Shown: positions 5,553-54,207, numbered from the stretch's first letter. The stretch is DNA of 64,000 bases from Escherichia coli (GCF_044324875.1 NZ_CP172185.1); one strand, 5' to 3'. The notes: generated by a model not told the origin, from the letters alone. Made by a program: numbers and translations.

Positions 5553-5567
5553 TCCGGCGTTTTGGCA

Positions 5568-6044
5568 TTAATCCTGGCGATCGTCTTTATGATCAAGGCG
5601 GTCGCGGTCATCATCCTTTCGCTGGTACTCACCATCAAAAGTATTACCGCCACCGGTCCCGGCGCTAAAACCGCCGCCTGGCATGCGAGAAAAGCGCAAA
5701 TGCGGCATCAACTTCACTGTCAGATGCTTTTGCACCGGCGGTAATAAAAGCAGAAGACCGAGGAAGTCGGTGAAAAAGCCCGGTAATAAAAGCAGCAAAC
5801 CGGCAATGATCAGCGAAACACTTTTAATCATCTCCGCCGCTGGGTTTTCACCTGCCGCCATTTTTTGCTGCATCAGCACGAAATTCTTAAAGCCCTGGTT
5901 GCGTACCAGTGACATACCGATAACTGACGTGAATATAACCAGCACGAGGGTCAGCAATACCCCCAATACATGGGCAACCTGAATAAAGATTGAAATCTCA
6001 ATATAGACATAAAGGAAAATGGCAATAAAAGGTAACCAGCGCAA
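5568..6044 (-). CDS. fxsA: Inner membrane protein FxsA
   Basis: 158 aa, N-terminal TM helices and acidic C-terminal tail; position between yjeH and aspA. Confidence 0.75.
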   Translation of the reverse strand: MRWLPFIAIFLYVYIEISIFIQVAHVLGVLLTLVLVIFTSVIGMSLVRNQGFKNFVLMQQKMAAGENPAAEMIKSVSLIIAGLLLLLPGFFTDFLGLLLLLPPVQKHLTVKLMPHLRFSRMPGGGFSAGTGGGNTFDGEYQRKDDDRDRLDHKDDRQD

Positions 6045-6177
6045 AGGTTTCTCCTGTAATAGCAGCCGGTTAACCCCGGCTACCTGAATGGGTTGCGAAT
6101 CGCGTTCAGCTTATATTGTGGTCATTAGCAAAATTTCAAGATGTTTGCGCAACTATTTTTGGTAGTAATCCCAAAGC

Positions 6178-6193
6178 GGTGATCTATTTCACA
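6178..6193. promoter_or_regulatory. Candidate CRP-type binding site upstream of aspA
   Basis: GGTGAtctattTCACA matches TGTGA-N6-TCACA with one mismatch, ~190 bp upstream of aspA start. Confidence 0.3.
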
Positions 6194-6380
6194 AATTAAT
6201 AATTAAGGGGTAAAAACCGGCACTTAAAGTGATCCAGATTACGGTAGAAATCCTCAAGCAGCATATGATCTCGGGTATTCGGTCGATGCAGGGGATAATC
6301 GTCGGTCGAAAAACATTCGAAACCACATATATTCTGTGTGTTTAAAGCAAATCATTGGCAGCTTGAAAAAGAAGGTTCAC

Positions 6381-7817
6381 ATGTCAAACAACATTCGTAT
6401 CGAAGAAGATCTGTTGGGTACCAGGGAAGTTCCAGCTGATGCCTACTATGGTGTTCACACTCTGAGAGCGATTGAAAACTTCTATATCAGCAACAACAAA
6501 ATCAGTGATATTCCTGAATTTGTTCGCGGTATGGTAATGGTTAAAAAAGCCGCAGCTATGGCAAACAAAGAGCTGCAAACCATTCCTAAAAGTGTAGCGA
6601 ATGCCATCATTGCCGCATGTGATGAAGTCCTGAACAACGGAAAATGCATGGATCAGTTCCCGGTAGACGTCTACCAGGGCGGCGCAGGTACTTCCGTAAA
6701 CATGAACACCAACGAAGTGCTGGCCAATATCGGTCTGGAACTGATGGGTCACCAGAAAGGTGAATATCAGTACCTGAACCCGAACGACCATGTTAACAAA
6801 TGTCAGTCCACTAACGACGCCTACCCGACCGGTTTCCGTATCGCAGTTTACTCTTCCCTGATTAAGCTGGTAGATGCGATTAACCAACTGCGTGAAGGCT
6901 TTGAACGTAAAGCTGTCGAATTCCAGGACATCCTGAAAATGGGTCGTACCCAGCTGCAGGACGCAGTACCGATGACCCTCGGTCAGGAATTCCGCGCTTT
7001 CAGCATCCTGCTGAAAGAAGAAGTGAAAAACATCCAACGTACCGCTGAACTGCTGCTGGAAGTTAACCTTGGCGCAACAGCAATCGGTACTGGTCTGAAC
7101 ACGCCGAAAGAGTACTCTCCGCTGGCAGTGAAAAAACTGGCTGAAGTCACTGGCTTCCCATGCGTACCGGCTGAAGACCTGATCGAAGCGACCTCTGACT
7201 GCGGCGCTTATGTAATGGTTCACGGCGCGCTGAAACGCCTGGCTGTGAAGATGTCCAAAATCTGTAACGACCTGCGCTTGCTCTCTTCTGGCCCACGTGC
7301 CGGCCTGAACGAGATCAACCTGCCGGAACTGCAGGCGGGCTCTTCCATCATGCCAGCTAAAGTAAACCCGGTTGTTCCGGAAGTGGTTAACCAGGTATGC
7401 TTCAAAGTCATCGGTAACGACACCACTGTTACCATGGCAGCAGAAGCAGGTCAGCTGCAGTTGAACGTTATGGAGCCGGTCATTGGCCAGGCCATGTTTG
7501 AATCCGTTCACATTCTGACCAACGCTTGCTACAACCTGCTGGAAAAATGCATTAACGGCATCACTGCTAACAAAGAAGTGTGCGAAGGTTACGTTTACAA
7601 CTCTATCGGTATCGTTACTTACTTGAACCCGTTCATCGGTCACCACAACGGTGACATCGTGGGTAAAATCTGTGCCGAAACCGGTAAGAGTGTACGTGAA
7701 GTCGTTCTGGAACGCGGTCTGTTGACTGAAGCGGAACTTGACGATATTTTCTCCGTACAGAATCTGATGCACCCGGCTTACAAAGCAAAACGCTATACTG
7801 ATGAAAGCGAACAGTAA
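6381..7817 (+). CDS. aspA: Aspartate ammonia-lyase
   Basis: ORF 6336..7817; start at [30 protein letters not shown]; fumarase/aspartase family signature [11 protein letters not shown]. Confidence 0.95.
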
Positions 7818-7842
7818 TCGTACAGGGTAGTACAAATAGAGA

Positions 7843-7870
7843 AGGCACGTCAGATGACGTGCCTTTTTTC
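7843..7870 (+). terminator. Intrinsic terminator after aspA
   Basis: AGGCACGTC-agat-GACGTGCCT stem-loop followed by TTTTTT. Confidence 0.6.
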
Positions 7871-7934
7871 TTGTGAGCAGTAACTTAAAAATAACAATCT
7901 AATATCAACTTGTTAAAAAACAAGGAAGGCTAAT

Positions 7935-9236
7935 ATGCTAGTTGTAGAACTCATCATAGTTTTGCTGGCGATCTTCTTGGGCGCCAGATTGGGGGGAATA
8001 GGTATTGGTTTTGCAGGCGGATTGGGGGTGCTGGTTCTTGCCGCTATTGGCGTTAAACCCGGTAACATCCCGTTCGATGTCATTTCCATTATCATGGCGG
8101 TTATCGCCGCTATTTCTGCCATGCAGGTTGCTGGCGGTCTGGACTATCTGGTTCATCAGACAGAAAAGCTGCTGCGCCGTAACCCGAAATACATCACGAT
8201 CCTCGCACCGATCGTGACCTATTTCCTGACAATCTTTGCTGGTACTGGCAACATCTCTCTGGCGACACTGCCAGTTATCGCTGAAGTTGCGAAGGAACAA
8301 GGCGTTAAACCTTGCCGTCCGCTGTCTACTGCAGTGGTATCCGCGCAGATTGCGATCACCGCATCGCCAATCTCAGCAGCAGTGGTTTACATGTCTTCCG
8401 TGATGGAAGGTCATGGCATCAGCTACCTCCATCTGCTCTCCGTGGTCATCCCGTCCACCCTGCTGGCGGTTCTGGTGATGTCCTTCCTGGTCACTATGCT
8501 GTTCAACTCCAAACTCTCTGACGATCCGATTTATCGCAAGCGTCTGGAAGAAGGCCTGGTTGAACTGCGCGGTGAAAAGCAGATTGAAATCAAATCCGGT
8601 GCAAAAACGTCCGTCTGGCTATTCCTGCTGGGCGTAGTTGGCGTGGTTATCTATGCAATCATCAACAGCCCAAGCATGGGTCTGGTTGAAAAACCGCTGA
8701 TGAACACCACCAACGCAATCCTGATCATCATGCTCAGCGTTGCAACTCTGACCACCGTTATCTGTAAAGTCGATACCGACAACATCCTCAACTCCAGCAC
8801 CTTCAAAGCAGGTATGAGCGCCTGTATTTGTATCCTGGGTGTTGCGTGGCTGGGCGATACTTTCGTTTCCAACAACATCGACTGGATCAAAGATACCGCT
8901 GGTGAAGTGATTCAGGGTCATCCGTGGCTGCTGGCCGTCATCTTCTTCTTTGCTTCTGCTCTGCTGTACTCTCAGGCTGCAACCGCAAAAGCACTGATGC
9001 CGATGGCTCTGGCACTGAACGTTTCTCCGCTGACCGCTGTTGCTTCTTTCGCTGCGGTGTCTGGTCTGTTCATTCTGCCGACCTACCCGACGCTGGTTGC
9101 TGCGGTACAGATGGATGACACGGGTACTACCCGTATCGGTAAATTCGTCTTCAACCATCCGTTCTTCATCCCGGGTACTCTGGGTGTTGCCCTGGCCGTT
9201 TGCTTCGGCTTCGTGCTGGGTAGCTTCATGCTGTAA
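7935..9236 (+). CDS. dcuA: Anaerobic C4-dicarboxylate transporter DcuA
   Basis: 433 aa polytopic membrane protein; directly downstream of aspA as in E. coli. Confidence 0.9.
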   Translation: MLVVELIIVLLAIFLGARLGGIGIGFAGGLGVLVLAAIGVKPGNIPFDVISIIMAVIAAISAMQVAGGLDYLVHQTEKLLRRNPKYITILAPIVTYFLTIFAGTGNISLATLPVIAEVAKEQGVKPCRPLSTAVVSAQIAITASPISAAVVYMSSVMEGHGISYLHLLSVVIPSTLLAVLVMSFLVTMLFNSKLSDDPIYRKRLEEGLVELRGEKQIEIKSGAKTSVWLFLLGVVGVVIYAIINSPSMGLVEKPLMNTTNAILIIMLSVATLTTVICKVDTDNILNSSTFKAGMSACICILGVAWLGDTFVSNNIDWIKDTAGEVIQGHPWLLAVIFFFASALLYSQAATAKALMPMALALNVSPLTAVASFAAVSGLFILPTYPTLVAAVQMDDTGTTRIGKFVFNHPFFIPGTLGVALAVCFGFVLGSFML

Positions 9237-12081: not shown

Positions 12082-12157
12082 GCCCGGATAGCTCAGTCGG
12101 TAGAGCAGGGGATTGAAAATCCCCGTGTCCTTGGTTCGATTCCGAGTCCGGGCACCA
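12082..12157 (+). tRNA. pheU: tRNA-Phe (anticodon GAA)
   Basis: GCCCGGATAGCTCAGTCGGTAGAGCAGGGGATTGAAAATCCCCGTGTCCTTGGTTCGATTCCGAGTCCGGGCACCA; cloverleaf with GAA anticodon loop; pheU assigned from yjdC neighbourhood (sequence identical to pheV). Confidence 0.95.
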
Positions 12158-12168
12158 AATTCATATAA

Positions 12169-12195
12169 ACGGACCTCCACGGAGGTCCGTTTTTC
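12169..12195 (+). terminator. Hairpin plus T-run after tRNA-Phe
   Basis: GGACCTCCAC/GGAGGTCC inverted repeat followed by TTTTT. Confidence 0.5.
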
Positions 12196-12354
12196 GTTTC
12201 AGGACGCCACGATTTAAGCGTCCTGCCGCCAAATCAATTCTACCGAACTCAACCAGACTCCCCCCACATCAACCCCATTGTGTGGGTATAATTGCGGGTA
12301 TACCCCAGTTCGACAGAATTTGTACCCTCTTTAACGCATTCAGAAGGCTGAACT

Positions 12355-13617
12355 ATGGCACTGACTGACGCAAAAATCCGGGCTGCAAAGCACACTGACA
12401 AGGCTTATAAACTCACTGACGGGGCTGGCATGTTCCTGCTGGTACATCCTAATGGTTCCCGTTACTGGCGTCTCCGTTATCGCATTCTGGGTAAGGAGAA
12501 AACTCTGGCACTTGGTGTATACCCGGAGGTTTCTCTCTCCGAAGCTCGTACAAAACGGGATGAGGCCCGAAAACTGATTTCGGAGGGGATTGACCCTTGC
12601 GAACAGAAAAGAGCTAAAAAAGTAGTCCCTGATTTACAACTCTCTTTTGAACATATTGCACGACGCTGGCATGCCAGTAATAAACAATGGGCACAATCAC
12701 ACAGCGATAAGGTACTCAAAAGCCTCGAAACACACGTTTTCCCCTTTATCGGCAACCGGAACATCACAACACTCAATACCCCGGACCTGCTTATCCCTGT
12801 TCGTGCTGCAGAAGCTAAACAAATTTATGAAATCGCCAGTCGTCTGCAGCAAAGAATATCTGCTGTAATGCGTTATGCCGTACAGTCTGGCATCATCAGA
12901 TATAATCCTGCTCTGGATATGGCTGGCGCATTGACCTCTGTAAAACGACAGCATCGCCCCGCTCTTGATCTTTCACGTCTGCCTGAACTTCTGTCGCGTA
13001 TTAACAGTTATAAAGGTCAGCCTGTCACCCGGCTTGCTGTTATGCTGAATTTACTGGTTTTTATTCGCTCCAGTGAACTCAGATATGCCCGCTGGGCTGA
13101 AATTGATATTGACAATTCAATGTGGACTATTCCAGCCGAACGCAAACCTCTGCCAGGGGTAAAATTCTCACACCGGGGCTCCAAGATGCGAACACCACAT
13201 CTTGTGCCACTCAGCAAACAGGCTGTAGCCATACTGACAGAACTTCAGACATGGGCTGGTGAAAATGGTCTGATCTTTACGGGAGCACATGACCCGCGTA
13301 AACCAATCAGTGAAAATACCGTAAATAAGGCCCTCAGAGTGATGGGGTATGACACAACCAAGGAAGTCTGTGGCCATGGATTCCGGGCGATGGCGTGCAG
13401 TGCATTGATTGAATCAGGTTTGTGGTCCCGCGATGCTGTGGAACGTCAGATGAGCCATCAGGAGCGTAATGGTGTACGTGCTGCGTATATCCATAAAGCA
13501 GAACATCTGGAAGAACGTCGACTGATGCTACAGTGGTGGGCAGATTTTCTGGATGCGAACAGAGATAAGGGTATCAGCCCGTTTGAATATGCAAAGATTA
13601 ACAATCCATTAAAATAG
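12355..13617 (+). CDS. int: P4-type tyrosine integrase (island integrase adjacent to tRNA-Phe)
   Basis: 420 aa; MALTDAKIRAAKHTDKAYKLTDGAGMFLLVHPNGSRYWRLRYRILGKEKTLALGVYPEVSLSEARTKRDEARKL typical of P4-like integrase N-terminus; C-terminal catalytic region with HGFRA; located ~200 bp after tRNA. Confidence 0.9.
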   Translation: MALTDAKIRAAKHTDKAYKLTDGAGMFLLVHPNGSRYWRLRYRILGKEKTLALGVYPEVSLSEARTKRDEARKLISEGIDPCEQKRAKKVVPDLQLSFEHIARRWHASNKQWAQSHSDKVLKSLETHVFPFIGNRNITTLNTPDLLIPVRAAEAKQIYEIASRLQQRISAVMRYAVQSGIIRYNPALDMAGALTSVKRQHRPALDLSRLPELLSRINSYKGQPVTRLAVMLNLLVFIRSSELRYARWAEIDIDNSMWTIPAERKPLPGVKFSHRGSKMRTPHLVPLSKQAVAILTELQTWAGENGLIFTGAHDPRKPISENTVNKALRVMGYDTTKEVCGHGFRAMACSALIESGLWSRDAVERQMSHQERNGVRAAYIHKAEHLEERRLMLQWWADFLDANRDKGISPFEYAKINNPLK

Positions 13618-14068: not shown

Positions 14069-17000
14069 ATGGATGAAAATGCTTTAGGGTTTGCCTCATA
14101 CTGGCGCAACTCGCTTGCGGACGCTGAGTCAGGAAAGGGCAGTTTTGAACGGAAAGACGCCAAAAATTTCACTCACTGGCATGGGATAGCGGCGGGACGT
14201 CTTGACGAAGCGATTGTCAGTAAATTTTTTAAGGGAGAAAAAGACGATGTCGAAACGGTCGATGTCATCTTGCGCCCAAAAGTTTATTTCCGGTTACTGC
14301 AGCATGGTAAGGACCGTTCTGCAGGTGCGCCTGATATTGTTACCCCGATAGTGACGCCAGCCTTGCTAAGCCGTGAGGGTTTTTTATATCCGACGCCAGC
14401 GACCTCCATTCCCAGAGACCTGCTTGAACCTTTGCCAAAAGGAGCATTTTCGATTGGTGAGATTGGGCAGTATGACAAATACAAGACGACCCATACCACG
14501 TTCTCTATCAACTTTGATGACAGCGTTGATAAGACTGCCGAAACGGATGAAGAACGGGAAGAACGATATGCAGCCTTGCAGCAGGAGTGGCGTCAATATC
14601 TGGATGATTCAGAGAGGCTGCTGAAGAACGTTGCCGGCGACTGGATTAAAAATCCTGAGCAATATGAACTCGCTGAGCACGGTTATATTGTTAAAACGGC
14701 GCAATCTGGCGGTGCCAGTTTCCATATCCTTTCTCTTTATGATCACCTGCTTGTTTGCAATAAGGATGTGCCGCTCTTCAATCGATTCGCCTCGCGAGAG
14801 GTTCATGCTGCAGAGTCTTTGCTGGCCCCTGGAGCAAAATTCAGCGACAGGCTTGGACACTCCGGAGATAAGTTTCCGCTGGCAAAGGCTCAGCGCGATG
14901 CCTTAAGCCATTTTCTGGATGCTAAACATGGCGATATCCTTGCTGTTAATGGCCCTCCTGGAACCGGAAAAACCACGCTGGTGCTTTCTATCATCGCCAC
15001 GCAGTGGGCCAGAGCGGCTCTCGAAAAATCTGAGCCTCCGGTTATTATCGCGACTTCAACGAATAACCAGGCTGTAACGAACATTATTGAGGCATTCGGG
15101 AAAGACTTTTCGCAAGGTTCAGGTGCGATGGCCGGGCGATGGTTGCCAGAGCTGAAAAGCTTCGGCGCTTATTTTCCCTCAGGCAGCCGTAAAGCTGAAG
15201 CAGCCAAAAAATATCAAACTGAAGATTTCTTCAACCAGGTTGAGTCAAAAGAGTATGTAGAAGATGCACTGCTGTTTTATCTGGAAAAGGCTAAGGCAGC
15301 CTTTCCTGAAAAAGAGTGTTCATCCCCTGAAAAGGTCATTGAACTCCTGCATGGTCAGTTGGCAGCAAAATCCGAGCAACTGATAAGACTGAACGCAACA
15401 TGGCAAAAGTTAAGCCAGATTCGGGCTGCGCGTGAGCTTATTGCTAATGATATTGAGCAATATCTCAATAATTTAAATAAATTACTTTCCGGACAAGAAC
15501 AAAAAATCACTCTACTGAAGAGTGCTAAAACGGAATGGAAAAAATATCGCGCCGGTGAATCACTGATCTATTCATTATTTTCCTGGCTTCCGGCGGTTCG
15601 CAGTAAGCGACAGTACCAAATACAGCTGTTTCTCGAAGATAAATTAGGTGCGCTGATTGCAGGAAATCAATGGTCTGATCCTGAAACTATCGAACGTAAT
15701 ATTGATGGGCTGCTCAATTCCGCTGAGCGCGAGCAAACAACATACCGGCAGCAGATTGACTCCGCCCATGAAATCATTCTTAAAGAACAGCAGGCGGTTC
15801 AGGAGTGGCAGAGACTGGCTCTTGATTTAGGGTATGAGGGCGACGAGGAACTGAGCTTCTCACAGGCCGATGAACTGGCTGATACGCAGATTCGCTTCCC
15901 TGCATTTTTACTGACGACTCACTACTGGGAAGGTCGTTGGCTGATGGATATGGCCAGCATTGATGATCTGCAGGAAGAGAAGAAGAAAAAAGGCGCTAAA
16001 GGGGTAACCGCCCGTTGGCAACGTCGAATGAAACTCACTCCATGTGTGGTGATGACATGCTATATGCTGCCCGGCAATATGCAGATAAGTGAGCACAAAG
16101 GACAGCGTAAATTCGAGAAAAGTTATTTGTATGATTTTGCCGATTTACTCATTGTCGATGAAGCCGGGCAGGTGCTTCCTGAAGTGGCTGCTGCCTCGTT
16201 TGCATTAGCTAAGAAGGCATTAGTGATTGGCGATACGGAGCAGATCCCGCCAATATGGAGTATTGCTCCTGCGATTGATATCGGTAACATGCTGGCGGAA
16301 AAAATTCTGTCTGGCAGTACGCAAGAAGAGATTACCGAGAAATATACGGCAATCGCAGACCTTGGTAAAAGTGCCGCATCTGGCAGCGTTATGAAAATAG
16401 CGCAGTTTGCTTCGCGCTATCAATATGATCCCGAACTGGCTCGTGGTATGTACCTATATGAACACCGCCGGTGCTACGACAATATTATTGGATACTGTAA
16501 TACGCTCTGCTATCACGGTAAGTTGTTGCCTAAAAGAGGGCGTGAAGAGAGCAATTTAATGCCCGCAATGGGGTATCTCCATATTGATGGTAAAGGAGAG
16601 CTGGCAAGTAGTGGAAGTCGATATAATTTGCTTGAGGCTGAAACGATAGCGGTCTGGTTGGCAGAGAACCAGCAAAATATTGAAGCGCATTACGGTAAAT
16701 CGCTTCATGAAGTTGTCGGTATTGTGACGCCTTTTAGCGCTCAGGTATCCACTATCAAACAGGTGCTGGGCAAACAAGGTATCAGTACAGGCACGAATGA
16801 AAAGTCGCTCACAGTGGGCACCGTGCACTCTCTTCAGGGAGCGGAAAGAGCGATTGTGATATTCTCGCCAGTCTATTCAAAACATGAAGACGGCGGGTTT
16901 ATTGATAGCGATAACAGCATGCTGAATGTTGCAGTCTCCCGTGCGAAGGACAGTTTTCTGGTCTTCGGCGATATGGACCTGTTTGAGGTCCAGCCAGCCT

Positions 17001-17584
17001 CATCGCCACGGGGATTACTGGCAAAATACCTCTTTGAGTCAGAGAAGAATGCGCTCTCTTTTGATTATAAAGAGCGTAAGGATTTAAAAACCGCCGGGAC
17101 CAAAATCTACACACTTCATGGTGTGGAGCAACATGATAATTTCCTGAATCAGACATTTGAAAATACCAGTAAACACATCACGATAGTTTCTCCATGGCTG
17201 ACCTGGCAAAGGCTGGAGCAAACCGGTTTTCTTGATTCCATGATTGCGGCGTGTTCACGTGGAATTAACGTCACGATAGTCACTGACAGAAGCTACAACA
17301 CTGAACATAATGATTTTGAGAAGCGAAAAGAGAAGCAGCAGAACTTTAAAGCGGCGCTGGAGAAACTGAATGCGCTGGGTATTGCTACAAAGCTGGTAAA
17401 CCGTGTTCATAGCAAAATTGTTATTGGTGATGATGGTTTGCTGTGCGTGGGATCGTTCAACTGGTTTAGTGCGACACGGGAAGCGCGATATGAACGATAC
17501 GATACATCAATGGTTTATTGCGGTGATAACCTGAAGGGTGAGATTGAGGCTATTTATAATAGTCTTGAGAGGCGGCAGGTTTAG
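14069..17584 (+). CDS. Large fusion protein: unknown N-terminal domain + Upf1-like SF1 helicase core + C-terminal PLD-family (single HKD) nuclease domain; candidate defence protein
   Basis: 1171 aa; Walker A GPPGTGKT (~aa 295), Walker B/motif [11 protein letters not shown] (~aa 695), motif V-like [11 protein letters not shown], motif VI-like VAVSRAKD, then HSKIVIGDD (HxK(x)4D) near aa 1114; first cargo gene after island integrase. Confidence 0.9.
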
Positions 17585-17692: not shown

Positions 17693-19192
17693 TTATCTTC
17701 TGCCCGGAAGAATCAGAGGCTGTGGTTTCAGACTGTCTGCCGGTACATTCCTGTCTCCGTTAAAAACAATAACGGGTTCATTATCTTCGTCTGTCAGCGG
17801 ATTGAATGGCGGTATATTTTCAGTACGAATGCCGGTCAGCCACTGAAAAATACCTGCGAAATGACGGGCACTGATTTTTCTGCTGACGGACTGATGAGAC
17901 GTGATGTCACTGGCGGTAATAATCAGGGGAACGCTGTAGCCTCCTTGTATATGGCCATCATGATGAACAGGATTAGCACTGTCGCTGACCGACAGACCAT
18001 GGTCAGAAAAGTAAAGCATGGCAAAATGACGGGAGTGCCGGCGAAGGATACCATCAAGCTGACCGAGAAAGTTATCCAGTTTACTGATGCTGGCGAGGTA
18101 ACAGGCAATCTTTCGGGGATACTGCTCCAGGTAATGATTCGGCCAGGAGTTAAGTCGGTCACACGGATTCGGATGAGAGCCAATCATGTGCAGGAATATC
18201 ACCTTCGGAGAGGATTTATCCGCCAGTGCACGTTCTGTTTCCTGTAACAACAACATGTCATCCGTTTTACGGGAAGCAAAGCTGCCTTTCTTGAGGAAAA
18301 CGGTATGCTCCGCATCAGAAGCAATAACAGAGATGCGTGTATCATGCTCCCCCAGTTTTCCCTGATTGGATATCCACCATGTGCTGTATCCTGCTTTTGC
18401 TGCCAGCGCCACCACGTTGTTGCCGGAGTCAGGGTTCTGCTCATAGTCATAAATCAGTGTCCGGCTCAGGGAAGGTACGGTACTGGCTGCTGCCGATGTA
18501 TAGCCGTCAATAAATAAACCGGGAGCCGTATTCAGCCATGGTGTGGTTGGCACGGGATAGCCATATACCGACATATAATCCCTGCGCACACTCTCACCAG
18601 TAACGATAACAATCGTGTCATACAACGGTGTTCCCGGCAGGATTTTCCAGTTGTCAGCCCCGTGCTGACTCAGTTGTTTATAACGCTGCATTTCACGCAA
18701 TGTGTCAGTTGTTCCCACAACAATTCCTTTAACCATCCGCAACGGCCAGCTGTTTACAGAGCATAATACGAACAGCAGCAGTGCCAGCCAGTTACGGTGA
18801 CCGCGGTGGTGTGTCCGCCAGAAAATCACCATGAATACCAGAATCGCGGCACTGACCAGAAAATGATAAACAGGAATCATCCCGGTAAACTCTGCAGCCT
18901 CATCAGCCGTGGTCTGCAGCAACGCGACAATAAAACTGTTGTTGATTTTACCGTACGTCATACCCGCAGGCGCATACAGTGCACAACAGAACAGAAATAA
19001 CAGCGTTGTAATGGATGTGAGGGTATTTCTGTGTGCAAGGAGCAGAAGGAGAAACAGAAGCAGCACATTTCCTGTGGCATTCTTCTCAGTGTATCCGCAT
19101 GCAATTGTGGTTATCACAGAAATAACAAAAAAGAATAAAAACAATAAAATCCGGGGTGTGTCGCCCGGACAAAACAGTTTTCTGATATTCAT
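17693..19192 (-). CDS. Sulfatase-family integral membrane enzyme (phosphoethanolamine-transferase-like)
   Basis: 499 aa; hydrophobic N-terminal TM region followed by soluble domain with HMIGSHPNPCDRL-type motif typical of alkaline-phosphatase/sulfatase superfamily transferases. Confidence 0.55.
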   Translation of the reverse strand: MNIRKLFCPGDTPRILLFLFFFVISVITTIACGYTEKNATGNVLLLFLLLLLAHRNTLTSITTLLFLFCCALYAPAGMTYGKINNSFIVALLQTTADEAAEFTGMIPVYHFLVSAAILVFMVIFWRTHHRGHRNWLALLLFVLCSVNSWPLRMVKGIVVGTTDTLREMQRYKQLSQHGADNWKILPGTPLYDTIVIVTGESVRRDYMSVYGYPVPTTPWLNTAPGLFIDGYTSAAASTVPSLSRTLIYDYEQNPDSGNNVVALAAKAGYSTWWISNQGKLGEHDTRISVIASDAEHTVFLKKGSFASRKTDDMLLLQETERALADKSSPKVIFLHMIGSHPNPCDRLNSWPNHYLEQYPRKIACYLASISKLDNFLGQLDGILRRHSRHFAMLYFSDHGLSVSDSANPVHHDGHIQGGYSVPLIITASDITSHQSVSRKISARHFAGIFQWLTGIRTENIPPFNPLTDEDNEPVIVFNGDRNVPADSLKPQPLILPGRR

Positions 19193-19373: not shown

Positions 19374-20114
19374 TCAGAAGTTATAAGTCACACCAAGCAT
19401 GATGTCATGACTTTTAACATCAACTTCTGACTTATATTTATCGCCCCACTCGTCCTTGTAACTCACACTGCTGTCACCTGCATCAAGATAGCGATAGCTG
19501 AGGTCCAGAGCGATATCCGGGGTTACGTCATAGCGGACACCCGCGCCAAGGTTCCATGCGAAGTTGTCAGCAGAGCCTGAACGTGACAACGATTCGCGAC
19601 CACTGCTTCCGTACTCATAATCCCAGGTACTGATACCGGTTGTTTTCTGGTGAATTCTGGCGTAGCCAATCCCTGCAGATATCCAAGGTGTGAATGCGCT
19701 GTCATTCCGGAAGTCATAGTACGCATTCAGCATTAGTGTGTTGACTGACACCTCATTCTTCAGGTCATCACGCCAGTAACCACCTGACCAACTGTCTTTA
19801 TCTACGTTATACTTCGAATCAGCTTTTCCACGAGCGTAAAACTCCAGTTCTGTACGAACCGGAATACTGAACTGCGGATAAAAATCATAACCAGCCGCGA
19901 TACCACCACTGAATACCGTATCATGGTCATCGCCGCCTTTATACTTTGACGTTTCTTCCTCATCTCCTGACAGGAAACGCTGGTCTGAAAGTGACACCAC
20001 AGAGGTACCGGCTTTACCGGTCAGATAAAAACCGCTTTTACCTTCCTCAGCACCTGCATTTGCTGCAAATACACAGGCTGCGGCCACCACTGAAACAGCA
20101 AAAACCTTTTTCAT
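19374..20114 (-). CDS. Outer-membrane beta-barrel protein (OmpA-like transmembrane barrel family)
   Basis: 246 aa; signal peptide MKKVFAVSVVAAACVFAANA; alternating aromatic/hydrophobic strands; C-terminal ...GVTYNF terminal Phe. Confidence 0.6.
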   Translation of the reverse strand: MKKVFAVSVVAAACVFAANAGAEEGKSGFYLTGKAGTSVVSLSDQRFLSGDEEETSKYKGGDDHDTVFSGGIAAGYDFYPQFSIPVRTELEFYARGKADSKYNVDKDSWSGGYWRDDLKNEVSVNTLMLNAYYDFRNDSAFTPWISAGIGYARIHQKTTGISTWDYEYGSSGRESLSRSGSADNFAWNLGAGVRYDVTPDIALDLSYRYLDAGDSSVSYKDEWGDKYKSEVDVKSHDIMLGVTYNF

Positions 20115-20569
20115 TTCAATTATCTCCGTTATTGCTCCGTTGCTGCAAGCAGTACTCAGTGCATTTTAAAACCCGCCATGCTATAGCCTCAATCGAATAA
20201 AATCGATCGAATCGATCGATGATATCGATCGTCATTAACCAGAAATTTTTATCGTATTCAGTCAGCACAGACACAACAAATGCATGCCATGCAGGCAGCC
20301 ATGCCCCGTCGCGACAGATGGTAGCAGTGGGCTGGCGAAGAGCAGAATTAATAAAATTTGTTTATTCTGTCAGGAGATAAGGTGTCACCTGTTCATGAAC
20401 ACAATTAAGGAAGAGACATACATGAGCTGACTGGCAGTCCAGAGTGCATGCGGTTACAAGCCGGAAAGGTGAACCGGTATAACCAGTGAGCAGAGTTTGT
20501 GAAGGGGGGATATAAAAAAGCCCACTGCATGGCTGCGGGTAAAGAGTCAGTTATTTCCGGCGTTTTTCA

Positions 20570-20950
20570 AGGTAGTTGTCGCCTGATGTAATAAAATTAC
20601 GTTATGCCGCTTCTTTTTCTGGATTCAGATAAACTGCCTGAATGAGTTCCCAGTCACGCAACTGTTTGCTCCAGCGCTCAGGATGACGCTTGCGAGCTTC
20701 GCGATAAACTTTTTTTCTGGCTTCCAGTATTTGTGCATCAATTCCGCGATGGCGTTCATCCGGAGTAACATACTTAATACCGCTGTGCTTGTGTTCCAGG
20801 TTGTACCATTACGTGAACTTGCTTAACCAACTTCTGGCTTCATCTATGGTTCGAAAACCATTCTCCGGCCACCATGAACAATACTTAATCGTCCGGAAGA
20901 GCGATTCGGAATAAAGAAGTGTTACTGGCAGTTCTTTCATCGCATCAGTG
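20570..20950 (-). pseudogene. IS3-family transposase C-terminal remnant
   Basis: Minus-strand translation ...GIKYVTPDERHRGIDAQILEARKKVYREARKRHPERWS... and ...NGFRTIDEARSWLSKF... resembles transposase C-terminus; no intact ORF. Confidence 0.45.
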
Positions 20951-20969
20951 AAAACCAGCAGGGCACTGC

Positions 20970-21391
20970 TCACCAGAGCAACACAGGAAAGTGAACCCGA
21001 ACAAAAGTTCCTGTACCATTTTCTCCCAGCAGACGTGAGGCTTGTTCCAGTGACGCTGGTATACGTCCCAGCCGGACATCAAGTGCGCCGATGGCTATTG
21101 CCTGAAATCGCATCGTACAGCAAATCACCAACAGGACACCGACAGACATTAAAGGTAACCCCCTGTAATCCAGTAGTTCCGCCAGCCAGCGGTCATTTAG
21201 GGAGTCAGAAAACCAATCGCCAGAATCGTGCCCGGAAAGGCATAACCCAGCGACGCCCCTCTCATCACACCGCGCCTGAACAGTGGCATAGCGTTGAGGA
21301 ATTCCGGGCATTCCAGACTACGAGCAGACTGACAAAAATTACGACAAAGCGTTGAAGGAAGCCAGCGCGCGGACTGACAGGACTTTACCAT
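20970..21391 (-). pseudogene. Degraded ABC-transporter permease fragment
   Basis: Fragments with EAA-loop-like sequence (IPASLEQASRLLGENGTGTFVRVHFPVLL) in two frames; no intact gene. Confidence 0.4.
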
Positions 21392-21440
21392 AAAAACACA
21401 GGCTAACCGCGCCTGCGTTTTTAATGACGGATAAACAGAA

Positions 21441-23420
21441 TCAGGTGCCGATTATGCCGCCGTCGGCTTTTACGATAACGACAGTTGAGGAGCGCGGACG
21501 ACCAGCCTTATCGCCGTCAGGCCAGCTTGATACTGCCGTCGGATGCTGCGGATCGCTAAGCCCTTCGCTTGGCTCGCCAGGGTGCTGGATGTTAATAAAC
21601 AGCGTCCGGTTATCCGGAGTGAACGCGATGCCGGTGATTTCGCAGCCGCGCGGGCCGGTCAGGAAGCGGCGGAACTCATTGGTACCGGGGATCGTCGCCA
21701 CCATCTGGTTGTTGCCCATGCCTTTGTAATCTTTACTATTGATGGTTGATGACGACACGTCGGTCTGGATCCATAGCACGCCGCGGTGATCGAAGCTCAG
21801 GCCATCGGCGCTGCCGAATTCCGCCCCCTTCATGCTGCCTTTGGTTTCCGGTTTGTCCGTATCGGTGCGACCGCCCATCACAAGAATATCCCAGGCAAAC
21901 TGCAGCGCGGTCGGGTCACCGTTATGCTCCAACCAGTGAATGATGTGGCCGTAAACGTTTTTGGCGCGCGGGTTGGCCGCATCCACTGGCGCTTTTCCTT
22001 CCTTACCGCGATCGCTGTTGTTGGTGAGCGTGCAGTAAACGCTGCCGGCGTGATATGGATCGACCGCAATCCACTCCGGGCGGTCCATTTTAGTGGCCCC
22101 CACGGCGTCTGCCGCCAGACGGGTTTTAATCAACAGGTCGCCCTGGTTTTCAAACCCTTTACTGGCGTCGAGCCCATTTTGTCCGAACACCAGCGGTAGC
22201 CACTCGCCTTTGCCGTCGTCGTTAAATTTCGCCACGTACAGAGTGCCTTTTTCCAGCAGGTGCATGTTGGCTTTGCGATCCTGCGGGTTGAATTTTCCTT
22301 CCGAGACAAATTTATATATGTATTCGAATTTCTGGTCATCGCCCATATAGACCACAACGCGGTTATCCGGGGCAATTGTCACCGCTGCGCCTTCGTGTTT
22401 GATGCGACCAAGCGCGGTGTGCTTGCGCGGCACTGAATGCGGATCGTATGGATCGATTTCCACCACCCAGCCGAAGCGGTTCGGCTCGTTCGGCGTGGCG
22501 TCGACGCTGAACCTTTTATCCACTTCGTTCCAGCGGTAAGAGTCGTCGCTCCCGCTGATACCGTAACGTTTTTCCAGCGGGTTCATCTCTGCTTTTTTTA
22601 CGAAAATATCGGACCAGTTCTCTTCACACGTCAGATAGGTGCCCCACGGCGTAAATCCGTTGGCACAGTTCTGCATGGTGCCGAGAATGATTTCGCCTTT
22701 CGGATCGTCAACTGTTTGCATCAGTGGGTTATGCAGCGCCGGACCGGTGATTTTCATCGGCGTGTTAACGGTGATGCGGCGTGCGAAAGATGACGGGCGC
22801 ACCACTTCCCAGCCCAGGGGCACTTTTTTTACTTCAATGACCGACACGCCCATCGCGTTCTGGCCTTTAAGAGCTTTATCGGCGCTCCAGTTGGCATCGC
22901 CATCTTTAAACAGTAGACCGTTATCGATGTATTCATGGTTTATGGCAAGCAGGCCGTGATCGGAGCTGTTCCCGCCCTGCGGCAGGCTAAACCACGCCAT
23001 GCCGTCGTGGTGCATCCCGGCCTGCGCCGCCTGTTCTTCCGTGGTGTTGCTACCGTCGGTTTTAAAAACCGGCAGATTTCCGGCAATCCCGGTGGCGTCG
23101 CCCCATTTGTAGAAGGGCTTCGCGATGTATCCTTCCGGCACGATAACGGTATCTTCCGTGGAAACCGGCAGGCTGGTGAAACCGAGCGTCGTCGCTTTGC
23201 CGAGGTTACCGCTTGCTTTGGAGACCACTTTCGCCAGCGCGTTTTCCTGTTTCAGCAGAAATGGGAACGCTGCCGCGGCACCGGCGACCGTGCCGGCCTG
23301 TAACAGACGGCGGCGTGACAAATAAACTTCCGCCACCTGCGAAAACGCGCGGTTATCGCTCGGGTTACTGATTTCTTCACTATGCTCACGTTTGAATAAA
23401 GTTTTTAACGGTCTGCCCAT
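21441..23420 (-). CDS. Tat-secreted PhoX-like (DUF839-type) phosphatase
   Basis: 659 aa; twin-arginine signal SRRRLLQAGTVAGAAAAFPF; size and composition consistent with PhoX family; family call not verified. Confidence 0.5.
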   Translation of the reverse strand: MGRPLKTLFKREHSEEISNPSDNRAFSQVAEVYLSRRRLLQAGTVAGAAAAFPFLLKQENALAKVVSKASGNLGKATTLGFTSLPVSTEDTVIVPEGYIAKPFYKWGDATGIAGNLPVFKTDGSNTTEEQAAQAGMHHDGMAWFSLPQGGNSSDHGLLAINHEYIDNGLLFKDGDANWSADKALKGQNAMGVSVIEVKKVPLGWEVVRPSSFARRITVNTPMKITGPALHNPLMQTVDDPKGEIILGTMQNCANGFTPWGTYLTCEENWSDIFVKKAEMNPLEKRYGISGSDDSYRWNEVDKRFSVDATPNEPNRFGWVVEIDPYDPHSVPRKHTALGRIKHEGAAVTIAPDNRVVVYMGDDQKFEYIYKFVSEGKFNPQDRKANMHLLEKGTLYVAKFNDDGKGEWLPLVFGQNGLDASKGFENQGDLLIKTRLAADAVGATKMDRPEWIAVDPYHAGSVYCTLTNNSDRGKEGKAPVDAANPRAKNVYGHIIHWLEHNGDPTALQFAWDILVMGGRTDTDKPETKGSMKGAEFGSADGLSFDHRGVLWIQTDVSSSTINSKDYKGMGNNQMVATIPGTNEFRRFLTGPRGCEITGIAFTPDNRTLFINIQHPGEPSEGLSDPQHPTAVSSWPDGDKAGRPRSSTVVIVKADGGIIGT

Positions 23421-23842
23421 TGCGGTTTCCTTTCAAAAAATCGATTTCAAGGGGAATCATTTTTATGCACGTGAGTCTACGGAAAGATTGTTACGGAAAT
23501 ATAACAATTGTCATAAAAAACCGGCGATAAAATCATCTATGGTCGGGACGCGGTTTCAGGTATGATGTGAGGCTAGAATTCTGAACGCTCTCTTTTGTTG
23601 AGCATATATGGACGTCCCGGGTGAGGCAAGTACTGGTTCGATGCGGTTTGCGACCATATATCCGGCGTCGTTAGTAGGTTCAATGACCTGCGCCATGATG
23701 TTATCCGGGCCCTGTTTCCTAATCACTACACCGGTATTTGATTACCCAGGTCAACTTCAGACTGTTACAGGGGCGGTAGCCGTTATCTCATCAGTGAATG
23801 TAAACTCAGTTAAAAATATTTTCTATAACTTACTGTTTTTCT

Positions 23843-24052
23843 TTAATTCATCACAACGGCCTTCTGCATATTAAAATCAATACTATCGCTCAAAACACGC
23901 CAGATGATTCTTGTCAGCTTATTCGCCAGCGCACCAGTGGTTTTCAGGAACCCTCGACGGGCTTCCATCCTTTGCAGACAAATACTCAGACTGTCAGTGA
24001 GCTTTTTCACACAGCGCATTACAGACTGAAATGGCACACTGAATTTGGTCAC
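23843..24052 (-). mobile_element. IS110-family transposase C-terminal fragment
   Basis: ...LKTTGALANKLTRIIWRVL... resembles IS110-family C-terminus; truncated. Confidence 0.4.
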
Positions 24053-24104
24053 CTGAACAGAGGTGATATGCTCACCTCAGAACAAGACTGGTGCCCTAAT
24101 GAAA

Positions 24105-25310
24105 AAAAGAAATTTTAGCGCAGAGTTTAAACGCTAATCCGCCCAACTGGTTGTTGACCAGAACTATACGGTGGCAGATGCCGCCAAAGCTATGGATATC
24201 GGCCTTTCCACAATGACAAGATGGGTCAAACAACTGCGTGATGAGCGTCAGGGCAAAACACTAAAAGCCTCTCCGATGACACCAGAACAAATCGAAATAC
24301 GTGAGCTGAGGAAAAAGCTACAACGCATTGAAATGGAGAATGAAATATTAAAAAGGCTACTGCACTCTTGATGTCAGCCTCCCTGAACAGTTCTCTATAA
24401 TAGGGAAACTCAGGACACGTTATCCTTTGGTCACTCTCTGTGTAGTGGATCGGTAATTCAGGACACCTCATTTTCACTGTTAATGTTAAAAAGTGAAAAT
24501 GAGGTGATGCATGATCAAAACTCGTCGGACTAAACGTACCTTTTCCCCGGAGTTCAAGCTTGAAGCTATCGAACAGGTGGTTAAATACCAGCGTGATGTC
24601 AGAGAAGTCGCGCTGGCACTCGAGCTCAACCCTGACCATTTGCGTAAATAGATACGGTTGTATAAGCAGGAACTTCAGGGTATTGAGCCCGCTGGTAATG
24701 CTATTACTCCTGAACAACGCTAAATTAAGCAGCTTAAAGCGCAGATAAAGCGCCCTGAGATGGAAAAAGAAATACTAAAGCAGGCTGCCGTGCTGATGAG
24801 CGAAATCCCCGGGGAAACTGTCGCGCTAATCACACAGCTGAAAGCAAAGTGGCCAGTGCGGGTTCTTTGTCATTTATTCGGTATTCACCGTAGCATTTAT
24901 TACGCGCAGGTGAAGCGTCCTGTTAATGTGCAAAGAATTGAATTACGAAGTCGGGTGAGGGCTGTCCATGCTCTCAGTCGTGGCGCAGTCGGTAGCCGGG
25001 CAATCAGTCAGATGTTGCGCCATAGTGGCGTTGATGCAGGTCGGTGGCTGGCACGACGACTGATGCGGGAATGCGGGCTGACAAGTCGACAGCCAGTTAA
25101 ACATCACTACCGGGTAAACGAAGACAAAAGTCCGCCATTGCCAAATTTACTGAACCGGCAATTTCACCCCGCCGCACCAAACCGCGTCTGGTGCGGCAAC
25201 ATCAGTTTTATTCGCCTGCAGGACAAATGGTGTTATCTCGCACTCGTTGTTGATTTATATTCACGGCGGATTATCGGTTCAGCCCTCTCATTAACCGCTG
25301 ATGCTGAGTT
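24105..25310 (+). mobile_element. Nested IS3-family remnants: IS911-like orfA fragment followed by a second IS3-family orfA/orfB with in-frame stops, truncated by IS66 insertion
   Basis: [52 protein letters not shown] (orfA-like with stop); MIKTRRTKRTFSPEFKLEAIEQVV...; orfB part ends ...WCGNISFIRLQDKWCYLALVVDLYSRRIIGSAL at the IS66 boundary. Confidence 0.6.
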
Positions 25311-27748: not shown

Positions 27749-29833
27749 TTACGCCTGACCGGTGTCTCTGGTGACATATTCCGGAGCTCCGGAGAGAGTA
27801 AAGGTAACGCGATCATCGGCAGAAGCATCTCCATACTGCAGATGCCCGTCGTTGGGGATCATGGCCAGTTTGCCGTAATAGCGATACACATTGTATTCAT
27901 CCTGTGTATAGCCAAAGAAGGACTGATTATTCAGTTGTGAACCCGACAGGCTGACAAACTCGCTGGCAAGAAGATGACTTCCCGTATTATCCAGTTTGTT
28001 CGCGTCAATCAGCAGATTATTACCGGCCGAAATTCTGGCATCCCCCCCTGTTGCACCAACATCGACGCGTGTTGTGCCAGTCAGAAATTTCCGGGTGGCT
28101 CCCTTTTCAGTCGGAACGGCCCATGCCTCAAAACCACCACCGGCAGTACCGCTCCAGGACTTCACATAATATCCCCATCCATTTTCACCTAAATCGCCCA
28201 CTCTGACTGAAACAGAATTTACACCATCAGGTACTGCGACATTCTCAACCGGAATGTATGATTTTGTCTCATTTATACCCTCCCGCTGATTCAGTAAATG
28301 TCCGGTTCTGATGGTGATATCACCGCGGGTGGTTTCGATATTCCCGGAGGTATTAATCACTTCAGCATTCGCGGCACCACTGACATCTTTCTGCATCACC
28401 AGGCTGTAACCCGCCAGCATATCGCCGTGATGGTTCCGGATGGTGCTGGCAAACAGCGAGAGGTTATTGCCCGCATACAACAGTGCGGTGTTAATGACTG
28501 CCCCGGCGACCGTTAACACCAGACTACCCGTCGTGCCGGTAAAACCGTCGAGAGTGATATCTCCCCTGCTGGTCAGGCTGACGTCCCCGCCTGCCTGCAG
28601 GCTGCCGCTGGCATTCATCGCAATCCCGCTGCCGCTCAGTGCCGTGGTGCCGTTGCCGGCGGTCAACTGGCCATTGTTGGTCAGCCTGCCTGCAGCATTC
28701 AGCGTGATACCGTTGCCCTGCAATGTGGCGCCATTGGTAATATCACCCTGGCTGCTGACGGAGAGTTGTTTATTCGCGGCGATAACGCCCTGTGCGGTCA
28801 AACCACGTGTGAGCTTCAGCGTCAGGTTACCGAGTGCAACCAGCTGGCCCGCGCCGCTGAGCGAGACCATTTCAGCAAGCATATCACCGCCGCTGAACAC
28901 CTTCCCGCCGGCGTTGTTCAGGCTGTTCCCTTTTATTGTCAGGCCCTGATTACCCAGCAGCGTGCCGCTGTTGGTGATGGTCTGCGTGTTGACGTTCAGT
29001 TGTGCAGCCTGGAACAGGCCACGGTTGGTCAGACTGTTACCTGTGAGCGTTGCCTGATTCGCCGCCATCACAGTGCCATTACCGGCAAGCTTCGCCACGT
29101 TCAGCAGCAGGTCAGTGGCCTGTAGCCAGCCACTGCCACTGTAGTCCGGCGTGGTGAACGTCAGCTCACCGCCGGAAAGAATCTTGCCACTGTTGTGGGC
29201 CTGCGTTGCCGCGCTGAGCGTGGTTTTACCGTTGCCCTGAATGGTGCCGTCATTAGTCAGCACAGGTGCAGAAAGCGCTGATACGTTCTGACTGAGAAGC
29301 ACACCGCTGGTCTGGTTGGTCAGGGCATTCAGCAATGTAAGAGTCAGCCCGCTGTCGCCCTGCACACGACCTGAGTTGGTCAGCGAACTGGCGGTGATTC
29401 GGTTATCCGCCCCCTGAAGCTGCCCACTATTGCTGATGTCTCTGGCGTTGACGTTTAATGTACCGCCTGTCAGCATTTTACCGTGCTGTTGCAGATTACC
29501 ACTGAGTGTCACATTCAGGCTGTTAACACCACTGATTTCGCCACCGTTGCTGAGCGAATCACCATTCACTTCCAGCGTCTTCGCGCTGATTAATCCCTTG
29601 TTACCCAGCACTTTCCCGGTAAGGCGGGCATCGCCCAGGGCGGTAATTTTGCTGCCGGTGGCAGCAATAACATCGCCACTCAGGGTCAGAGCCAACTCCA
29701 GCGCACTCTGAACAGCACCGCTGCTGGTCAGGCTGCTGGCATCCAGAGTAATGTTCTGCCCCTGAATCCGGCCGCTGTTGGTCACATCTCCTGCGCTCAG
29801 CGTCAGCGAGTTCTGGCTCGATCCGCGCACCAC
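27749..29833 (-). pseudogene. Fragment of a large filamentous-haemagglutinin/CdiA-like repeat protein (two-partner-secretion exoprotein), truncated at both ends
   Basis: 694 aa of degenerate ~20-aa repeats rich in TLSG/LTNSG/IQGNG/NAL motifs; no signal peptide or TPS domain; 3' end abuts IS66 copy 1; 5' end abuts the GC-rich block. Confidence 0.6.
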
Positions 29834-52330: not shown

Positions 52331-52707
52331 GCTGTATTCAGCCAGCTAAAGCACGCAGCAACCGTATGACTATCTGATCTGCAACTCGTTGATGATAAAG
52401 TGTTAGACCCCGTGAGGTATATCTGATTATTGTACAGGATATACGTATCCGCTTAACGAACAAGAGCCTCACTCGCGTCTTTCATCTGGGCCGAATAGAT
52501 GAGATTCATCATGGTTGTTTATAGTACCGTCGTCTCTCCCCTTTATTTTTACAGAAAAGCAAACAGAAACCATAAATACCGGCGTTGACATGGCGGGGAA
52601 GCCGGCAACGGCTATCCCTACCGTAATCATAATATTTCTGTCATTTCTGCTCCCTACAATGACGTTAGTTTTACTTCTGGGCGATAACAACGAAAGGAGA
52701 GTATGAC

Positions 52708-54051: not shown

Positions 54052-54207
54052 GGGGAAGAGCATCTTACGATACTCCTCGCTAATTTAAAAACGAACGGTG
54101 CTGAGCACCGTTTTTAATCACCTCGCCAGAACCTACCAGAATATGATGTTGGTTTATTATCACTGATTCATGGGGAGCACCCAGCGCTTCGGCGGTTTTT
54201 TATGTCT

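Follow-up and report, generated by a model that had tools for sequence, protein, structure and literature searches.

PhoA, the core alkaline phosphatase of E. coli, uses Zn/Mg and is exported by the Sec pathway. PhoX enzymes are unrelated to PhoA in both fold and family. The PhoX of P. fluorescens Pf0-1, a PF05787 protein with an Fe3+/Ca2+ cofactor, is synthesized as a Tat-type precursor from a core chromosomal gene, and its purple colour is reportedly due to a thiolate-to-Fe3+ charge-transfer band. The PhoX of C. jejuni is periplasmic, exported by the Tat system and controlled by a phosphate-sensing two-component system, PhosS/PhosR (PMC3197622). Substrate range differs among PhoX enzymes: that of P. 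fluorescens is specific for monoesters, that of S. meliloti accepts a broad range and that of Ramlibacter is intermediate (PMC5768637). Weak phosphite oxidation has been described for the P. fluorescens enzyme (PMC12704751). With respect to E. coli, the gene already carries the RefSeq name 'PhoX family protein' or 'PhoX family phosphatase', and no experimental study of E. coli PhoX was found in our literature search.

Here, we have analyzed a phoX gene located on an island within a 64,000-nucleotide stretch of an E. coli genome (GCF_044324875.1, NZ_CP172185.1; hereafter, the window). The explanation that we consider most probable as a whole (probability of about 0.82) is that the gene encodes a PhoX alkaline phosphatase that would be induced by PhoB, exported by the Tat system and acquired horizontally. 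Given the RefSeq name and the evidence from C. jejuni PhoX, the finding is therefore correct but ordinary, and novelty is the only point on which the earlier note is corrected. The PhoX family, its fold, its export route and the logic of its regulation are textbook knowledge and carry little weight as a discovery; what is added here is the anatomy of the promoter and terminator, the edges of the transferred unit, a promoter polymorphism and the distribution of the gene. The features of the locus are listed in Table 1.

Table 1. Features of the phoX locus, in window coordinates
Feature	Position	Strand	Basis
IS3-family transposase remnant, terminator side	about 20547-20915		95-96% to annotated IS3-family transposases of other E. 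coli
Iron ABC permease pseudogene fragment	20887..21345	-	RefSeq, same arrangement: frameshifted, both ends missing
Transferred unit (promoter, phoX and terminator)	21346..23520	-	Sole stretch homologous to the Cronobacter-type chromosomal locus
Intrinsic terminator hairpin	21391..21423	-	13-bp stem including A/U-tract pairing, 7-nt loop, then U-run
phoX coding sequence	21441..23420	-	ATG start, 659 aa (ORF list)
Predicted Tat signal peptide codons (aa 1-63)	23232..23420	-	TIGR01409, conserved RR, AxA motif
Shine-Dalgarno AAGGAA	23427..23432	-	6 nt 5' of the phoX ATG, read from the sequence
Candidate -10 hexamer TAGACT	23474..23479	-	TAnnCT invariant in 8 orthologous promoters
Predicted Pho box TTGTTATATTTCCGTAAC	23490..23507	-	Two 7-bp direct repeats, 11-bp spacing, replacing the -35 hexamer
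IS3/IS911-like transposase remnant, promoter side	24025..24447	+	IS911/IS3 matches, about 4,000 genomes

Family membership, conserved residues and export signal

The earlier note had described a PhoX-like phosphatase of 659 residues with a twin-arginine signal, standing alone between insertion sequence remnants, and each of these points agreed with our results. The ORF list contained a frame with the same coordinates, on the minus strand. The ATG start is credible because the Shine-Dalgarno sequence is suitably placed and because conservation among orthologs of at least 10 genera extends over residues 1-35 (MGRPLKTLFKREHSEEISNPSDNRAFSQV...); the GGA core of the Shine-Dalgarno sequence was invariant in eight orthologous upstream regions. 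A Pfam search assigned the protein to PF05787 (PhoX, formerly DUF839) and to no unrelated beta-propeller family, with 554 bits (cut-off 24 bits; E=6e-166) over residues 80-615 and model positions 2-515 of 515, a match that is far beyond chance. The only PDB matches were structures of P. fluorescens PhoX (3ZWU, 4A9V, 4A9X, 4ALF and 4AMF); 3ZWU_A aligned with E=9.3e-168 (query 70-658 on chain 2-585), and the two proteins were ∼48% identical in the multiple alignment. In addition, 1,047 relatives at E<=1e-30 could be identified among 1.84 billion representative proteins.

Conservation within the family was examined in an alignment of 108 near-full-length, diverse PhoX representatives (about 36-55% identity). 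The island protein has the consensus residue at 60 of the 61 columns that are conserved at 93% or more. This set includes R36/R37, N251/C252 (of the QNCANG motif), E266/E267, E321, D323, K333, R339, H342/E343, D361/D362, D446, E449, D539, D554 and Q612/H613. The single deviating column is a near-invariant Pro changed to Ala (P538A), and A538 is also found in Cronobacter and Buttiauxella. In the P. fluorescens crystal construct, C252 corresponds to position 179 and E343 to position 273, which we take to be an Fe-ligand cysteine and a catalytic-site glutamate, respectively; the test itself used family-invariant columns, and metal ligands among them are putative. Judged by its sequence, phoX is intact and codes for an alkaline phosphatase of the ordinary PhoX type. 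Its local G+C content is 56%, compared with 51% for the whole window. ORFs on the plus strand that overlap phoX were set aside as short antisense frames in a G+C-rich gene, taken as mechanical by-products.

The N-terminus has the features of a Tat signal, that is, an S/T-R-R-x-F-L-K motif, a weakly hydrophobic h-region, a basic residue in the c-region and an AxA site. Residues 34-41 read L-S-R-R-R-L-L-Q (R36-R37 codons at 23315-23310), with L in place of the consensus F, which is present in most orthologs, and Q in place of K. A conserved 35-aa n-region precedes the RR pair, and the motif is followed by an A/G-rich h-region, AGTVAGAAAAFPFLL (mean hydropathy 1.04), and then by Lys58 and A61-L-A63. 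Cleavage between ALA and K, near Ala63, is predicted from the AxA motif only and would leave a mature protein of 596 aa (about 65 kDa). The NCBIfam model TIGR01409 (TAT signal) matched with 17.8 bits, above its cut-off of 16.7, and the Pfam TAT_signal model scored 16.7 bits, under its cut-off of 22.7. R36 and R37 are conserved in 98-99% of the 108 representatives.

Compared with the described systems, the island protein shares with P. fluorescens PhoX the family, the Tat-type precursor and a mature part that can be aligned over its whole length, with each of the four cysteines and with the acidic, His and Lys/Arg positions that are conserved; by homology, the Fe3+/Ca2+ cofactor may be assumed for it as well. 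It differs in the conserved 35-aa region before the RR pair and, unlike the core chromosomal gene of P. fluorescens, E. coli phoX lies on a mobile island. By analogy, it may also share the logic of the C. jejuni enzyme, namely a periplasmic, Tat-exported phosphatase induced through a phosphate two-component system; however, in place of PhosS/PhosR, the predicted regulator is PhoB, with a Pho box of the classical enterobacterial type as its site. Like PhoA, the predicted PhoX would be a periplasmic, Pho-box-driven phosphomonoesterase.

Promoter, terminator and edges of the transferred unit

We compared the 160 bp 5' of phoX in the window with those of seven orthologous loci (Cronobacter-type, Franconibacter, Enterobacter, Klebsiella, Kosakonia, Buttiauxella and Shimwellia). 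PhoX proteins of these genera have 73-96% amino-acid identity to the island protein and share with it the N-terminal signal and the core of Pho box and -10 element. The flanks of the eight upstream regions could not be aligned, and an invariant block was observed between them, composed of GTTAT-N6-GTAACA, 9 nt, a TAnnCT hexamer (T, A, C and T invariant, positions 3 and 4 variable) and then the GGA of the ribosome-binding site. The earlier note had named an upstream Pho box as a point to check, and the block contains one: an 18-bp site, conserved in orthologs and located 10 nt 5' of the -10 hexamer.

The PhoB consensus is CTGTCAT-A(AT)A(TA)-CTGT(CA)A(CT) (PMC3465305). A position weight matrix (PWM) was built from 39 ChIP-defined PhoB 18-mers of the same study (training sites 8.9-22.2 bits, median 14.9). 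The window site scored 11.25 bits and ranked 15th of 127,966 window positions, and the chance expectation in 150 nt of one strand is 0.018 for sites of the window type and 0.002 for those of the ancestral T allele described below. The orthologous boxes scored 10.1-16.5 bits; in six of the seven loci (10-14 kb each) the box was the best match on either strand, and in the seventh it was the second best. E. coli phoA has an identical layout, in which the box CTGTCATAAAGTTGTCAC is separated from TATAGT by the 10-nt spacer GGCCGAGACT; in phoX, the 10-nt spacer before TAGACT is AATCTTTCCG. The phoA promoter sequence used here was confirmed at 100% identity in E. coli genomes. In both sequence match and spacing, the predicted Pho box appears to fit the layout of a PhoB-activated promoter. 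A generic sigma-70 scan gave only weak 9/12 matches, no better than shuffled sequence, which would be explained by an activator-dependent promoter without a -35 element. No structured RNA or riboswitch was detected by Rfam (E<=0.1) in 20000-24500.

In the window allele, a T-to-C change has turned the second half-site into CCGTAAC; T is found at this place in all other genera, in plasmid alleles and in strain BEN2908. This change costs 2.5 bits (from 13.8 to 11.25), which places the site under the training median and near phnC (11.8), one of the natural PhoB-bound sites that have CGT in the second half-site (PMC3465305). The window promoter allele was found as an exact match over 60 bp in at least 65 E. 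coli genomes. An inverted repeat (ATGACAATTGTTAT in the window; a perfect 16-bp palindrome, TATAACAATTGTTATA, in BEN2908) overlaps the Pho box, and a reverse-strand PWM match lies at 23497-23514. A site for a second regulator at this palindrome was considered, including a rough comparison with the Fur box (about 12/18 by eye); the left arm is unconserved outside the E. coli alleles, and such a site was therefore given low weight.

On the other side of the gene, the terminator hairpin begins 18 nt past the stop codon. Its predicted RNA fold has -18.5 kcal/mol (z = -4.9), none of 200 shuffled sequences folded as well, and in the Cronobacter-type locus the stem is conserved and the loop varies. 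Since this hairpin directly follows phoX, the gene is a monocistronic unit. A blastn comparison with the contig encoding the Cronobacter PhoX gave 92% identity over window 21346-23520 only, that is, phoX with 100 bp upstream and 95 bp downstream, and plasmid alleles match the window from 21341/21342 to 23504/23538. As the Cronobacter-like homology is limited to this stretch, phoX is a self-contained 2.2-kb unit. Its homology and anatomy indicate that it is a horizontal acquisition that came with its own predicted phosphate-starvation promoter, its putative export signal and its terminator.

The surroundings of this unit belong to a tRNA-linked island. The E. coli core genes epmB to dsbD-dicD are followed by tRNA-Phe (pheU, 12082-12157), an integrase and the island, and BEN2908, an avian pathogenic strain, has the same module at tRNA-Leu (leuX). 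The order of the module is phosphoethanolamine transferase, outer-membrane protein, IS3 remnant, permease fragment, phoX and IS3/IS66. IS3 remnants thus lie on both sides of phoX, with the permease fragment in addition on the terminator side. On the promoter side, about 500 bp with no assigned feature (23521-24024) separate the phoX unit from the IS3/IS911-like remnant, where matches begin at about 24025 and RefSeq reports a 'transposase, frameshifted, incomplete'; further IS3 and IS66 (ISEc8-like) genes extend to about 27680 (Pfam rve/HTH_21 and IS66 domains). The impression that a 69-aa ORF (23843-24052) is the tail of an IS110 transposase found no support in Pfam. We also considered the iron ABC permease as a functional partner of PhoX, which needs iron. 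This reading was rejected: the gene is frameshifted and lacks both ends, its ORF had no Pfam match, the Cronobacter homology ends exactly at the edge of the fragment, and the native neighbours of phoX vary. The permease fragment abutting the phoX unit is junk rather than a partner gene.

In the mechanism that we propose, phosphorylated PhoB would bind the predicted Pho box, which would stand in for the -35 element, under low phosphate and would recruit RNA polymerase to the TAGACT hexamer, and the monocistronic phoX mRNA would begin about 7 nt past 23474 and end at the hairpin beyond the stop codon, in its U-run near 21391. The PhoX precursor would fold in the cytoplasm, take up its Fe3+/Ca2+ cofactor there and be exported by the host Tat system by means of the SRRRLLQ signal, with cleavage near Ala63. 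In the periplasm, PhoX would hydrolyse organic phosphate monoesters, with Pst taking up the phosphate that is released, and would act as a second, zinc-independent phosphatase beside the core PhoA. The 2.2-kb unit itself would have come from a Cronobacter-like enterobacterium and now reside in an island scrambled by insertion sequences. If so, phoX would be a clean example of a minimal promoter-to-terminator transfer that fits the PhoB/PhoR and Tat systems of the recipient.

Distribution, selection and alternative explanations

The closest protein outside Escherichia is the PhoX of Cronobacter universalis (96% identity), followed by those of Franconibacter (80-81%) and Enterobacter/Klebsiella (76-78%). 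The neighbourhood of phoX differs in each of the seven genera compared, whereas in E. coli the gene is isolated between IS remnants. The neighbours of phoX are a MetNIQ-like ABC system in the Cronobacter-type locus and, in Buttiauxella, genes for T6SS or fimbriae. An operon for a ZnuA/ABC-3 metal transporter lies 3' of phoX in the Klebsiella, Kosakonia and Enterobacter loci, and in those of Klebsiella and Kosakonia no other gene lies between a P4-type integrase and phoX. The gene is mobile across the Enterobacteriaceae.

Full-length phoX could be identified in 98 of the 5,426 complete E. coli genomes (1.8%), in contrast with the core gene phoA, which was present in 5,418 of them. Almost all copies (94 of 98) are at least 99% identical, and all of the 99%-identical copies examined are chromosomal. 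A few alleles are about 93.5% identical, and the one examined is plasmid-borne; alleles of this type also occur on nine PLSDB plasmids from E. coli and E. albertii, the two typed ones being IncF. Decayed 112-bp remnants of phoX, annotated as a pseudogene, were found in about 360 genomes. By analogy with the P. fluorescens enzyme, about 2% of E. coli would have, in addition to PhoA, an alkaline phosphatase dependent on Fe/Ca and not on Zn, and such an enzyme could matter where the host withholds zinc.

This sparse distribution, together with the many genomes that retain just the 112-bp fragment, is also what might be expected if phoX were a silent or poorly expressed passenger that is heading for loss and makes no real contribution to phosphate supply. 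The ring of IS remnants and pseudogenes around the gene, the weakened Pho box of the majority chromosomal allele and the near-universal presence of phoA point in the same direction. However, all five phoX alleles examined were intact, with zero internal stops or frameshifts, and dN/dS was 0.06-0.13 overall (0.07 for a pair of chromosomal copies, 0.12-0.13 when chromosomal copies were compared with plasmid ones); phoX is under purifying selection. Moreover, the promoter, Shine-Dalgarno sequence and terminator are all preserved, and natural sites such as that of phnC are bound by PhoB in spite of a CGT in the second half-site. We therefore regard a passenger as unlikely.

A PhoX-fold enzyme whose main substrate is something other than monoesters, for example diesters, nucleotides, phospholipid head groups or, promiscuously, phosphite, seems quite improbable. 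The varied substrate range of the family (PMC5768637) and the phosphite oxidation seen in P. fluorescens (PMC12704751) leave room for it, and the neighbour of phoX on one IncF plasmid encodes a phytase-like esterase, an arrangement that hints at a pathway of two steps. On the other hand, the 60 of 61 family-invariant residues and the high identity to a monoesterase of solved structure argue for the canonical activity, the sequence carries no mark of a divergent subfamily, and every one of the closest relatives is a canonical PhoX protein of full length. Control of phoX mainly by a palindrome-binding regulator or by read-through from promoters of the IS elements upstream is very improbable indeed, since Cronobacter and the other genera lack the left arm of the inverted repeat that overlaps the first half-site, whereas the direct-repeat box is invariant and has the spacing to the -10 element seen in PhoB-activated promoters.

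Other Pho-box genes of the island

The best PWM match of the whole window was not the phoX box but TCATAATATTTCTGTCAT at 52627-52644, which is followed by 10 nt and then TACAAT. This site precedes a gene (52708-54051) for a protein with a Sec signal, annotated with 'esterase-like activity of phytase'. In addition, 11-bp-phased CTGTCAT-like repeats at about 49758-49812 precede a gene for a ugpB-like binding protein, the promoter of which resembles that of K-12 ugpB. With three Pho-box genes on one island, lineages associated with poultry and humans may have a Pho regulon that is enlarged by accessory genes; the sequence pattern suggests an accessory extension of this regulon borne by islands and plasmids.

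A more specific reading, which we hold tentatively and regard as possible rather than probable, is that, in E. coli associated with poultry and humans, pheU/leuX islands and certain IncF plasmids carry an acquired Pho extension composed of phoX, the phytase-like esterase gene and a ugpB xenolog. All three genes would serve the scavenging of organophosphates in the periplasm, each being transcribed separately and having a Pho box of its own. The phoX and esterase genes would come from a module in which they were neighbours, and this ancestral two-gene module would still be intact on an IncF plasmid. If this is true, the three-gene set could provide zinc-independent phosphate acquisition in the host, and it would be relevant because the Pst/Pho system is linked to ExPEC/APEC virulence.

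The phytase-like esterase gene was found in 228 E. coli genomes. On the IncF plasmid NZ_CP141865.1, it lies tail to tail with phoX at a distance of 278 bp. Both plasmid genes share about 93% identity with their window counterparts, which are 29 kb apart, and for both of them the homology between plasmid and window begins at the Pho box or a short distance upstream of it.

Phytase-like esterase gene, its Pho box and its pairing with phoX

The coordinates of most features considered here are listed in the table below. In the IncF plasmid (locus L011), phoX and the phytase-like esterase gene adjoin one another in convergent orientation with a gap of only 278 bp, whereas 29 kb lie between the two copies in the window. 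This difference in arrangement suggests an ancestral organophosphate module composed of two genes, the esterase gene and phoX, which was split afterwards by IS activity. The esterase gene was identified in 228 of the 5,426 complete E. coli genomes. A PWM scan found the highest-scoring Pho box of the entire window 5' of this gene (TCATAATATTTCTGTCAT, 14.15 bits), with a spacing of 10 nt between this box and the TACAAT hexamer. The same box is kept in the plasmid allele of the esterase gene, which is 93% identical, and the homology between the plasmid allele and the esterase region starts just 5' of the Pho box.

Upstream of the ugpB-like gene, several Pho-box repeats with 11-bp phasing were observed (window 49758-49812), and this arrangement is similar to that of the K-12 ugpB promoter. 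No ugpAEC genes were found downstream of the ugpB-like gene in the window; in the annotation of the avian pathogenic strain BEN2908, a degenerate IS110 element lies directly 3' of the same gene.

Features in the window and on the IncF plasmid
Feature	Location	Strand	Details
Helicase-PLD fusion	14069-17584	+	1,171 aa; adjoins island integrase
Divergent EptA/CptA-like phosphoethanolamine transferase gene	17693-19192	-	Sulfatase and EptA_B_N domains
Outer-membrane beta-barrel protein gene	19374-20114	-	8-stranded type
PhoX residues 1-35	23316-23420	-	n-region ahead of twin arginines
Filamentous-haemagglutinin-repeat ORF	27749-29833	-	beyond IS66 element
ugpB-like solute-binding protein gene	49897-51213	+	SBP_bac_8/SBP_bac_1
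Pho-box region of phytase-like esterase gene	52627-52660		Pho box and TACAAT
Phytase-like esterase gene	52708-54051	+	PF13449 'esterase-like activity of phytase', 207 bits; Sec signal
Esterase gene and phoX, plasmid	L011 (NZ_CP141865.1) 4479-8079	convergent	corresponds to window 21342-23504 and 52614-54065

Promoter alleles, relics and N-terminal region of phoX

Chromosomal phoX promoters of E. coli fall into two alleles that differ at window positions 23495 and 23512. The window-type allele, which has C at 23495 (within the Pho box) and G at 23512, was matched exactly in at least 65 genomes. The BEN2908-type allele has the ancestral T at 23495, giving a stronger predicted Pho box, and its A at 23512 creates a perfect 16-bp palindrome (TATAACAATTGTTATA) that overlaps the first half-site.

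About 360 other E. coli genomes, BL21 among them, and many plasmids carry an internal 112-bp piece of phoX (window 22447-22558) that is 91-93% identical. In these genomes and plasmids the annotation gives it as a pseudogene fragment of 'alkaline phosphatase', and its neighbours are a gene for an Ag43-type autotransporter and debris of IS and toxin-antitoxin elements. This piece is a relic of earlier phoX carriage.

The n-region of PhoX is long, and from Enterobacteriaceae to Neisseriaceae it shows strong conservation of the pattern MxRPLK..FKxEHxxxISNxSxNxxFSxV. Such conservation is unusual in the n-region of a signal peptide; one possible role of this segment is docking, either of a chaperone or for insertion of the cofactor.

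Integration sites and other island genes

The phoX-containing module is associated with different integrases and different tRNA genes (window 12082-13617; comparison locus L001, 15742-17278): it is located at pheU (tRNA-Phe) in the window and strain EC21Z-147, and at leuX (tRNA-Leu) in BEN2908. The helicase-PLD fusion had a full-length match (1,694 bits) to MkoC of PADLOC, the protein of Mokosh type II anti-phage defence; the BEN2908 island, similar in other respects, lacks this gene. Just outside the phoX unit, the island also carries the phosphoethanolamine transferase gene, whose product scored far under all MCR/Ept equivalog cut-offs, and the beta-barrel protein gene. The filamentous-haemagglutinin-repeat ORF probably encodes a fragment of an exoprotein of the CdiA/two-partner-secretion type.
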